DNA from: Xylographa opegraphella | Taxonomy: Eukaryota | Direction of reading: 5' to 3' | Assembly: GCA_022813865.1 (NCBI GenBank) | Contig: JALDZX010000068.1 | Coordinates: forward strand, 62,001 to 97,929 | Length of the DNA stretch: 35,929 bases | Shown here: positions 26,583 to 28,799 of the stretch, piece by piece | How the letters are laid out: every line of letters starts with the position of its first letter | Numbering within the stretch: the first letter of the stretch is position 1 | Made by a program: the position numbers and the translations under genes | The notes under the pieces: generated by a model | Database searches by the model: none | Seen by the model: the letters and a program-made list of their open reading frames with translations, nothing else | What the model was told of the DNA's origin: nothing

Positions 26583-27379
26583 TAGGACTGCAGGCACGAA
26601 GGGGACGATGTCGGAGACAACCCAGATTCGACATTCGACGTGTCATGAACCTAATCACAGTCATCTCTTATGAGCCGAGATTGGACTGATGCCATCGCTA
26701 AGCGGTATTTATATAGCTATCCATATCCTACATGGGGCGGCAAACTTTGTTGATATAGACTATTCATAGGACATATAATACATTGGTATCAATTTCTACT
26801 TTGCACATGTCAACTGACCATTCTTTCGCCTCCACCAGGTCCGCTAAGTCGGAGCACTCAAGCTTCGACGTCACTGCAACATCTTCGGCTAGAACCCCGT
26901 GTGGTCCATAGCCATCCAGAAAACGAGCCAGGGGAGAAGTACTGGAAGTGTATACAAAGTGCGCCAAGAATTCTGATAGGCTATGTTAAGCAGTAAACTA
27001 CTCTCGCCACTCATCAGATTTGAGTAAACTCGGCAAAACGCTTTGGCGCCTTCGATTTTGTTCAGTCATGCAGGTGTATATCTCTCAATACCAAGAGGAC
27101 TTGAAACACCTATGGCCCATTCCGCCCTCAAGGCCATGTGAGAGCGTATGATATCTGGCTCCATTGAAAGCCCTTTCGACCGCTAGCACCTACTGACCGC
27201 CCTCGCCCACGAAGACCGCGATCCACCCACCTCCAGAACAATCGGCCCAAAGCTCTTCGCAGGCATACTCATAGCAGGATATATCCCGATCTCATCACAT
27301 CATGATTCGTACAATCCATTCATCCCCCCAAGCATCCCGAACATCACACCTCCTCCGCCGCAACCCATCTACCTCTCCC

Positions 27380-27805
27380 TCACGCCGGCCCTCCCATTTG
27401 CCCTTCGCCCTCCCCATCCCCCTTAACCCCCCCCTCCCCCCACCCCCCCAGATTAACTACCACCGCCTCCCCCCCCGCCCTCACAATCGCCCACACGACC
27501 TCCTCCTCACCATTATTCACCTCCTGATGCTCCTCCCAGGCAGGGATGAGCGCGAAATCGCCCGGCGCCATCGGCTGCGTCTTGCGGCCGCCGTCCGTGA
27601 CGATGGCGCCGTGCCCGCTGCGCGCGTACACGACCGTGTCCTGCGCGCCGTGGTGGTGCACCGCCGAGGCGCTGTGCGGCGCCGCCGTCATCAGCGACGC
27701 GTTGAGCTGCGTCGAGGCCCGGTGCAGGGCCGCGGCACGCGTCATGCCTGGCGATTGGGCCGTTTGCGCTGAGAGCGCGGTGGAGGGCGTGTGGGTTAGG
27801 GGCAT
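27380..27805 (-). CDS. RmlC-like cupin domain protein (~141 aa)
   Basis: Cupin motif 1 SAVHHHGAQDTVVYARSG and motif 2 PGDFALIPAWEEHQEVN. The ATG at 27805 is preferred over the upstream ATG, which falls inside the tRNA. Confidence 0.88.
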   Translation of the reverse strand: MPLTHTPSTALSAQTAQSPGMTRAAALHRASTQLNASLMTAAPHSASAVHHHGAQDTVVYARSGHGAIVTDGGRKTQPMAPGDFALIPAWEEHQEVNNGEEEVVWAIVRAGGEAVVVNLGGWGEGGVKGDGEGEGQMGGPA

Positions 27806-27985
27806 TATTGGGTTTGGTTTTTGAAAGGGGGGGGTGGGGAGGAGGGAGATGGTGGAGATGGTGGAGGATGACGTGGTGAAATGGGGTAGTTCTGGGGGGA
27901 GAAAGAAATGTAAGGTTATATACGATAATAAGATACTGTGTTTTTGTGAATGCCAGTTCCGCTGGCGCAATGGTAGCGCGCTAGA

Positions 27986-28032
27986 GTGTGTATATCAAGT
28001 CTACAATATCAACCTCAGCTAATGTTAAATAG
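27986..28032 (+). other. 47-nt spliceosomal-type intron inside the tRNA, between positions 31 and 32
   Basis: 5' GTGTGT, branch-like GCTAAT at 28018-28023 and 3' TAG at 28030-28032. Exact GT-AG excision restores the anticodon arm. Confidence 0.8.
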
Positions 28033-28038
28033 CTTCTA

Positions 28039-28045
28039 CCCCGAT
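28039..28045 (+). other. 7-nt canonical tRNA intron at position 37/38 (CCCCGAT)
   Basis: Starts one base 3' of anticodon TCT. Its antepenultimate G can form the anticodon-intron pair with C32. Confidence 0.75.
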
Positions 28046-28086
28046 ATCTAGAGGCTGTGGGTTCGAGTCCCACGCGGAATGCTCAC

Positions 28087-28093
28087 TTTTTTT
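28087..28093 (+). terminator. RNA polymerase III terminator (T7 run)
   Basis: TTTTTTT begins 5 nt after the tRNA discriminator, followed by several more T runs up to ~28122. Confidence 0.8.
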
Positions 28094-28169
28094 GCCACTT
28101 TTTGGCATCACTTTTTGGTTTTTGTTCAGGAATACCGGAACTAGTATTCAGCTTACGAATCTATGCATT

Positions 28170-28799
28170 TTAGCCCTCTTCAGCATGATCGAATGCCTTT
28201 GAAGACGCTTTATCAAGATCATAACGCCAATGATTAGGGTCAAGTTTCCTACCTATAGTAGAAATTGTTAGCATATCCACATGTTGAGCTTCGTGTAACC
28301 TGCCGCCGAGTTCTTCTGTCTCAGTCACATCAACAATCGAATTACTTTTCTTGGAAGCCTGCAGTCGTTTCAACCCTCTACCGCCACTAGTCTGTCGTAA
28401 AGGCTTTCTTTTGGTTATCGATAATATAGGCGTAGTTTCCTCTTCCTCATATTCGACGGCAGGCTTACCAAGTAGGTTAGTATAGTGTACTGAGTCGACC
28501 TCAGAGAGATCGTTGAGCTTTGGTTCCTCCTCTTTCTTTTTACCAGCCCTTACCCATTTGTCGTGCAGTTTAGCCACTTCCGCCTTTATCCATAAACCTT
28601 GTAGCCCTTTTAATCCCTAAAGATCTCACCATTCCGATACTTTCATATACCACTCGATCAAGGCGTGGCGGTTCTCGCACTTTGATACTTAATACAGCAT
28701 CCTTTTTACTAATTTCCGCATCTCCTTTTCATATAAGAACACGGTTTCACCTATAATAGAAAACATAGTCCCTCTCTTGCTTCTTCCCTTATTTTTTTG
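28170..28799 (-). pseudogene. Decayed ORF with in-frame stops, unknown family
   Basis: The frame of ORF 28170-28577 continues upstream as MFSIIGETVFLYEKEMRKLVKRMLY*VSKCENRHALIEWYMKVSEW*DL*GLKGLQGLWIKAE, with three stops (TAA, TGA, TAG) in AT-rich sequence. Confidence 0.5.

Follow-up and report, generated by a model that had tools for sequence, protein, structure and literature searches.

We analysed a stretch of DNA of 35,929 nt (hereafter the window), in which a putative tRNA gene, interrupted by two inserts, lies at 27956-28081. The protein domains encoded in the window (Med8, PQ-loop, patatin with DUF3336, WD40, cupin and acyl-CoA dehydrogenase), together with the short CTAAC-type introns in its coding frames, which are like those of filamentous fungi, indicate fungal-type nuclear DNA. 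The tRNA gene is neighboured by a cupin-domain ORF that starts near 27815 and by another ORF that ends at 28170, both on the minus strand. The features of the locus are as follows.

27917..27933, plus strand: TATATA and AATAAG-like motifs some 25-40 nt ahead of position 1 (by eye)
27956..28081, plus strand: putative tRNA-Arg(UCU) gene from position 1 to the discriminator G73, inserts included (direct reading, ARAGORN, Rfam)
27956..27985, plus strand: 5' exon, positions 1-31, with the acceptor 5' strand, the D arm and the anticodon-stem 5' strand
27963..27973, plus strand: A-box-like element TGGCGCAATGG, within the 5' exon
27986..28032, plus strand: candidate spliceosomal-type insert of 47 nt at 31/32 (signals, and same-position inserts in relatives)
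27986..27991, plus strand: candidate 5' splice site GTGTGT of the 47-nt insert
28019..28023, plus strand: candidate branch motif CTAAT of the 47-nt insert, with its A at 28022, 10 nt from the end
28030..28032, plus strand: candidate 3' site TAG of the 47-nt insert
28033..28038, plus strand: 6-nt piece CTTCTA, positions 32-37, with the anticodon TCT at 28035-28037
28039..28045, plus strand: candidate TSEN-type insert CCCCGAT of 7 nt at the canonical position 37/38, whose G 28043 can pair with C32 (28033)
28046..28081, plus strand: 3' exon with A38, the anticodon-stem 3' strand, variable loop, T arm, acceptor 3' strand and G73
28060..28070, plus strand: B-box-like element GGTTCGAGTCC, within the T arm
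28087..28093, plus strand: T7 run, Pol III terminator-like, six bases past the gene

The acceptor stem (GTTCCGC / GCGGAAT) begins at 27956 with a G1-U72 wobble, the D arm reads GCGC-AATGGTA-GCGC, and a variable loop of 5 nt is followed by the T arm GTGGG-TTCGAGT-CCCAC and by the discriminator G at 28081. The two halves of the anticodon stem, CTAGA (27981-27985) and TCTAG (28047-28051), are separated by 61 nt where 7 are expected. The features of a type-2 Pol III gene are all present, namely the A-box-like element, the B-box-like element and the T7 terminator-like run, TGGCGCAATGG and GGTTCGAGTCC being identified by the A-box and B-box consensus; there is no second B-box-like match in the window. 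Only with both inserts out does the loop show a pyrimidine at 32, U33, the anticodon UCU and a purine at 37. The position of a TSEN-type intron (37/38) is that of the 7-mer at 28039-28045 and not that of the 47-mer, which is inserted at 31/32. The original prediction, made from the letters alone, had placed a 47-nt insert before CTTCTA (28033-28038) and CCCCGAT at 37/38, and the direct reading agrees with it to the base. It had also paired the antepenultimate G of the 7-mer with C32, and G 28043 can indeed pair with C 28033, with a 3-nt bulge before the stem. This bulge consists of A, T and A38, and adjoins the anticodon stem only once A31 and C32 are brought together.

For the whole window, default ARAGORN reported no tRNA, and Rfam at the gathering threshold reported nothing. 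When the locus alone was searched, the Rfam tRNA model reached 50.1 bits by skipping 59 nt in the anticodon loop. ARAGORN with introns allowed read the locus as tRNA-His(gtg) with one 54-nt intron, and after in-silico removal of 27986-28032 it called Arg(tct) with a 7-nt intron at 37/38. The original prediction had warned of a His or undetermined call by automated tools, and it turned out that this warning was right: the His(gtg) call appears when introns are allowed, and default ARAGORN and Rfam miss the gene.

Related genes were searched for in metagenomes with a pattern composed of a D-arm motif, 40-70 unspecified bases, CTTCTA, 14-40 unspecified bases and a B-box motif. The pattern is blind to GT, AG and the branch site, and reaches only Arg(UCU)-like genes in which an insert of 28-58 nt lies after the D loop and before the anticodon loop; the collection was scanned once. 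It matched 16 loci, which were examined with 400 nt on each side. Nine of the 16 (L001, L002, L004, L005, L008, L009, L010, L012 and L013) are Arg(UCU) genes with an insert of 50-55 nt upstream of the anticodon. They represent seven distinct genes, L009 being the same as L002 over 923 nt and L005 differing at 6 of 923 positions (the L002 group); with the window gene they make the eight distinct genes compared below. The metagenome loci are assumed to be fungal from the style of their introns. No further tRNA genes were found by ARAGORN in the flanks of the nine insert-bearing loci. As a negative control, the same pattern gave 0 matches in a collection of bacterial and archaeal genomes.

The remaining matches were set aside. 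L003 and L016 are two Ala tRNA genes in tandem, and in L007 and L015 a D-arm-like stretch lies ahead of an Arg(tct) gene that has no interruption. L011 was not counted, being without a tRNA call. L014 was not counted either; at 330-560 it holds a tRNA array (Pro, Ile, Thr) that includes an Arg(UCU)-like stretch, probably degenerate, whose acceptor strands are unpaired and which gets no ARAGORN call. In L006, an Arg(ccg) gene lies at 389-513 on the minus strand; its one intron is ordinary, 51 nt long and canonically placed, and a GT-AG insert is absent. A related D arm is thereby seen in a second Arg isoacceptor.

For each of the eight distinct genes, the position, length, 5' site, branch motif and 3' site of the GT-AG insert are listed here.

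Window gene: 31/32, 47 nt, GTGTGT, CTAAT, TAG
L002 group: 31/32, 52 nt, GTGAGT, CTAAC, CAG
L012: 31/32, 55 nt, GTGAGC, CTAAC, CAG
L001: 18/19, 52 nt, GTGAGA, CTAAT, TAG
L013: 18/19, 52 nt, GTAAGC, CTAAC, CAG
L004: 19/20, 53 nt, GTAAGG, CTAAC, CAG
L010: 19/20, 50 nt, GTAAGT, CTAAC, TAG
L008: 22/23, 53 nt, GTCAGT, CTAAC, CAG

The boundaries were obtained by listing all deletions that restore an uninterrupted D arm and anticodon loop, with splice signals ignored. This search gave 2-7 solutions per gene, so many because the rule left five stem bases free, and exactly one solution per gene has the form GT...AG. In all eight genes the GT-AG insert is 47-55 nt long, ends in YAG and places the branch A 10-12 nt before its final base; the branch motif is CTAAT in the window gene and L001 and CTAAC in the other six. 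Over both strands of the window, a triple of GT, CTRAY and YAG is found in 32 of the 645,804 segments that measure 47-55 nt, that is 5e-5 with real mRNA introns counted, and all eight distinct genes pass the same test; the boundaries of the 47-nt insert are fixed independently by tRNA structure. The bodies of the inserts are poorly conserved, with 27-38 identical of 50-55 positions in every pair, whatever their position class, and the signals are kept in 8 of 8. For comparison, the intron candidates of protein genes in the window are 44-71 nt long, begin with GTAAGT, GTGAGT, GTATGT or GTGGGT, contain CTAAC or CTGAC and end in YAG. The marks of a U2-type intron, i.e. an extended 5' GT site, a fungal CTRAY branch at a short fixed distance, YAG and a length within the host range, are thus all found in the inserts.

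The claim of the original prediction that two types of intron flank a 6-nt anticodon piece is strongly supported by this comparison, since the arrangement of a GT-AG insert at 31/32, CTTCTA and a 37/38 insert recurs in L002/L005/L009 and in L012. Five further loci have an equally spliceosome-like insert in the D arm. Judged by their sequence signals, such introns are present in fungal Arg(UCU) genes at at least four positions. Run on the unspliced window gene and its relatives, ARAGORN returned His, Ile (three times), Thr, Glu, Pyl and no call (three times), and once the GT-AG insert had been removed in silico, 9 of 10 sequences were called Arg(tct) and given an intron at 37/38. The exception is L010, which is read as Ala(tgc) through another placement of the intron.

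The second insert lies exactly at 37/38 in all eight genes, and its length is 7 nt in the window gene and 15-22 nt in the relatives. The anticodon-intron pair of eukaryotic tRNA genes joins C32 or U32 to the antepenultimate intron base, as described in section 11 of PMC10275265; the corresponding bases are C-G in five of the eight genes (window, L002, L004, L010 and L012), C-A in L001 and L008, and C-C in L013. A length of 7 nt is short for a tRNA intron, the range given for budding yeast in the cited part of PMC10275265 being 14-60 nt.

Once both inserts are taken out, each of the eight genes measures 72 nt and has the loop CTTCTAA (8 of 8), and the discriminator is G in 7 of 8. Every stem cell is paired (168 of 168), and compensatory double changes occur in 9 of the 21 pairs. 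Of these stems, the D stem and two T-stem pairs are imposed by the pattern or the boundary rule, and the 3' end of the 37/38 insert was itself placed by means of anticodon-stem pairing. The independent cells are all paired as well (80 of 80), comprising 56 cells of the acceptor stem, in which six of seven pairs are compensatory, and 24 cells of the three outer T-stem pairs.

Two further observations concern the family as a whole. The G1-U72 wobble is present in six of the eight genes (L013 has G-C and L004 has U-A); its conservation in this Arg(UCU) family is unusual. Besides, in the 70 nt viewed upstream, TATA-like stretches and a recurring AATAAG-like motif were seen by eye about 20-40 nt before position 1 in most of the eight genes, and these motifs could be an upstream promoter element.

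Sequencing runs were also compared with the region. In the DNA run X1, from which the window may come, only the source contig aligns on the tRNA (27300-28700 at 80% likeness), the exons of 30 and 36 nt being near the shortest alignable pieces. As the contigs may also have been filtered, we do not take this as a sign of a single copy. In run X2, which is from another organism of the same study, a contig matches the T arm up to 28069 and continues with GTAAGTCTTGC (30 letters read); a tRNA gene there may have a spliceosome-type insert at 61/62, in its T arm. The match of another X2 contig starts at 27962, and the letters ahead of it, ...CAGAATGTCCGA, are very similar to the 5' flank and acceptor of L001; the X2 organism may carry an L001-like Arg(UCU) gene with an insert in the D loop. 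Inside the ORFs on the cupin side, numerous short contigs of all three runs match a C/T-rich stretch of low complexity (27408-27449) at 80-90% likeness, which is a simple repeat and not a shared gene.

Taken together, we consider it quite probable from these sequence features that the locus is a functional nuclear tRNA-Arg(UCU) gene, in a genome like that of a filamentous fungus, with a 47-nt U2-type spliceosomal intron at 31/32 and a TSEN-type intron at 37/38. RNA polymerase III would transcribe the gene from its internal A and B boxes and stop at the T7 run. Excision of the 47-mer would then fall to the spliceosome, which in fission yeast also removes the intron of the U6 snRNA made by Pol III. 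The removal would join A31 to C32, so that the anticodon stem could form together with the C32-G pair and the 3-nt bulge. The tRNA splicing endonuclease and ligase would subsequently remove the 7-mer to leave the loop CUUCUAA. The 6-nt micro-exon should be no obstacle to the spliceosome, because all sequence past the AG serves as the 3' exon.

To consider the order of the two steps, we computed minimum-free-energy folds. The unspliced folds of the 31/32 class (window, L002 and L012) are without the canonical anticodon stem. In the unspliced fold of the window gene, AGCUUCUA (28031-28038) pairs with UAGAGGCU (28049-28056) in place of the anticodon stem. This alternative helix of 8 bp sets the last two intron bases and CTTCTA against the 3' strand of the anticodon stem and the variable loop, and the 3' splice site would be hidden in it; L002 could form a weaker version. 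After removal of the GT-AG insert, seven of the eight genes fold to a cloverleaf with an extended anticodon arm, L001 being the one that does not. The predicted folds of the 31/32 class fit an order in which the spliceosome acts first and the endonuclease second. In the D-arm class (L013, L004, L010 and L008) the anticodon arm is already formed before splicing, so a fixed order may not be imposed on all these genes. An ordered mechanism of two machines, as proposed in the original prediction, is plausible.

Four other explanations were weighed against this reading. The first keeps the same introns and the same mature tRNA and differs in the precursor, which would be made by RNA polymerase II from its own promoter or as part of a longer host transcript, be spliced co-transcriptionally and then be processed by RNase P and RNase Z. 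The spliceosome is normally recruited in coupling with Pol II, and there are TATA-like motifs upstream, but upstream TATA elements are also known in some fungal Pol III genes. The insert of L010 contains a T5 run, the sole such run among the eight distinct genes, which might stop Pol III; yet the A-box-like and B-box-like elements are intact and T runs are located close behind the genes, downstream of the relatives as well as of the window gene. Furthermore, no sense-strand coding gene able to lend a Pol II transcript is evident flanking the tRNA, both neighbours being on the minus strand. A Pol II precursor is hence regarded as improbable. A depletion of T runs in the inserts was also considered as a sign of Pol III and was rejected, as none of the seven mRNA intron candidates in the window has a run of four or more T and the inserts are not different from them.

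The second explanation is a dead gene: a 47-nt insertion would have struck an Arg(UCU) gene that had a normal intron of 7 nt, and the gene would have fallen into disuse. It would agree with the splice signals of the window gene, GTGTGT and CTAAT, which are weaker than GTGAGT or GTAAGT and CTAAC in the relatives. It does not agree with the perfect stems and compensatory changes in eight distinct genes (80/80 independent cells), with the preservation of all three splice signals in all genes while the rest of the insert diverged, or with the position 31/32 common to three diverged genes; and none of the nine insert-bearing Arg(UCU) loci found by the signal-blind pattern (0 of 9) is without the signals. 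Perfect stems and kept splice signals are what is expected from selection on a functional tRNA and on splicing, and not from decaying insertions. We therefore regard disuse of the gene as very unlikely.

Equally slim is the chance that the tRNA splicing endonuclease alone removes both inserts, in the way of the ectopic or multiple bulge-helix-bulge (BHB) introns of the red alga Cyanidioschyzon merolae or archaea. Ectopic and multiple tRNA introns removed by the endonuclease do exist in one eukaryote, as reported in the cited part of PMC3728597. However, a BHB motif is absent from all GT-AG inserts (0 of 8): none forms the central helix of 4 bp, only one to three of the four pairs being available, and the flanking helices are weak. 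A GT start, a branch motif at a fixed distance and a YAG end are also foreign to endonuclease introns, for which section 11 of PMC10275265 gives no conserved terminal motifs.

Finally, a single 54-nt tRNA intron (27992-28045) that leaves the anticodon GUG and a His-like tRNA, as called by ARAGORN with introns allowed, can hardly be credited, since the loop would have G32 and U37, which do not fit tRNA-His(GUG), with G opposite G at the anticodon-intron pair, since the identity would differ among genes of the same architecture (Ile in the L002 group and Thr in L012, whereas two introns give Arg(UCU) with CTTCTAA in 8 of 8), and since the conserved splice signals would be left unexplained.

For the tRNA-Arg(UCU) gene with one spliceosomal and one TSEN-type intron, known systems offer partial parallels. 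To our knowledge, textbooks hold that tRNA genes do not carry messenger-RNA-type introns. Reviews, in the parts cited here, keep the nuclear intron types apart: spliceosomal introns are assigned to Pol II transcripts and nuclear intron types are described as unrelated (PMC12530127), and tRNA introns are taken to occur one per gene and to be removed without the spliceosome, the limit of one intron per eukaryotic tRNA gene being stated in the tRNAscan-SE 2.0 paper (PMC8450103). In section 11 of PMC10275265, eukaryotic tRNA introns are placed between N37 and N38 and lack conserved terminal motifs, and five of six human tRNA-Arg(UCU) genes are listed with an intron. The 37/38 insert of our genes resembles such canonical introns in its site and, in the window gene, in the C32-G pair and the 3-nt bulge. 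The 47-nt insert is unlike them in its position at 31/32, in its terminal and branch motifs and in being a second intron of the gene. In Cyanidioschyzon merolae and Crenarchaeota, tRNA genes likewise have more than one intron, at non-canonical positions including the D arm, and standard finders miss or misread them, but their introns are BHB endonuclease substrates according to the cited parts of PMC3728597 and PMC4090602, whereas the inserts here are without BHB and have spliceosomal signals.

Spliceosomal introns in fungal non-coding RNA genes are already known. For Schizosaccharomyces pombe and other fungi, an mRNA-type intron was reported in the U6 snRNA gene (Tani and Ohshima 1989, 1991; Canzler et al. 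2016, as cited in PMC5855946), and section 14 of the same source describes the sole U6 gene of S. pombe as a Pol III gene whose intron is removed by the spliceosome. Like U6, the present locus is a small structured fungal non-coding RNA gene of Pol III type with a short GT-AG intron and canonical 5', branch and 3' sites. Unlike U6, its tRNA host is not a component of the spliceosome, so the idea of reverse splicing at the catalytic centre is not obviously applicable, and a second intron of endonuclease type is in the gene, so that two splicing systems would act on one RNA of 72 nt. Spliceosomal introns are further recorded in fungal U1, U2 and U5 snRNA and rRNA genes (Takahashi et al. 1993, 1996; Bhattacharya et al. 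2000, as cited in PMC5855946) and in fungal U3 snoRNA (in the cited part of PMC5832005). They share with our inserts their non-coding RNA hosts, recognition by signal motifs, a lineage-specific occurrence and, for the most part, the lack of direct experimental proof; none of them is in a tRNA and none is paired with a tRNA-type intron. In the full-text literature that was accessible to the searches, no earlier description was found in which a nuclear tRNA gene has an intron of spliceosomal type. What would be new here is the tRNA host and the combination with a tRNA-type intron.

In a wider sense, the comparison makes us lean, with some reserve, towards the view that in an ascomycete-like clade the AGA-decoding tRNA-Arg(UCU) would be made only by way of the spliceosome and then of the endonuclease and ligase, acting on one Pol III transcript, and that spliceosomal introns would have entered this gene at at least four positions. 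If the two-intron reading is true, there would be a systematic gap in annotation, where such genes are missed or given a wrong anticodon and fungal genomes may falsely seem to be without an Arg(UCU) gene. The range of substrates of the spliceosome would extend to a tRNA, and the gene would be the second natural gene of Pol III type, after U6, that needs the spliceosome. tRNAs, like U6, could then be targets of intron gain, for instance by reverse splicing followed by reverse transcription, and the various insertion sites scattered over a single small RNA would provide a clean system for studying the gain of spliceosomal introns. For the organisms themselves, the translation of AGA codons would be tied to the capacity of the spliceosome.
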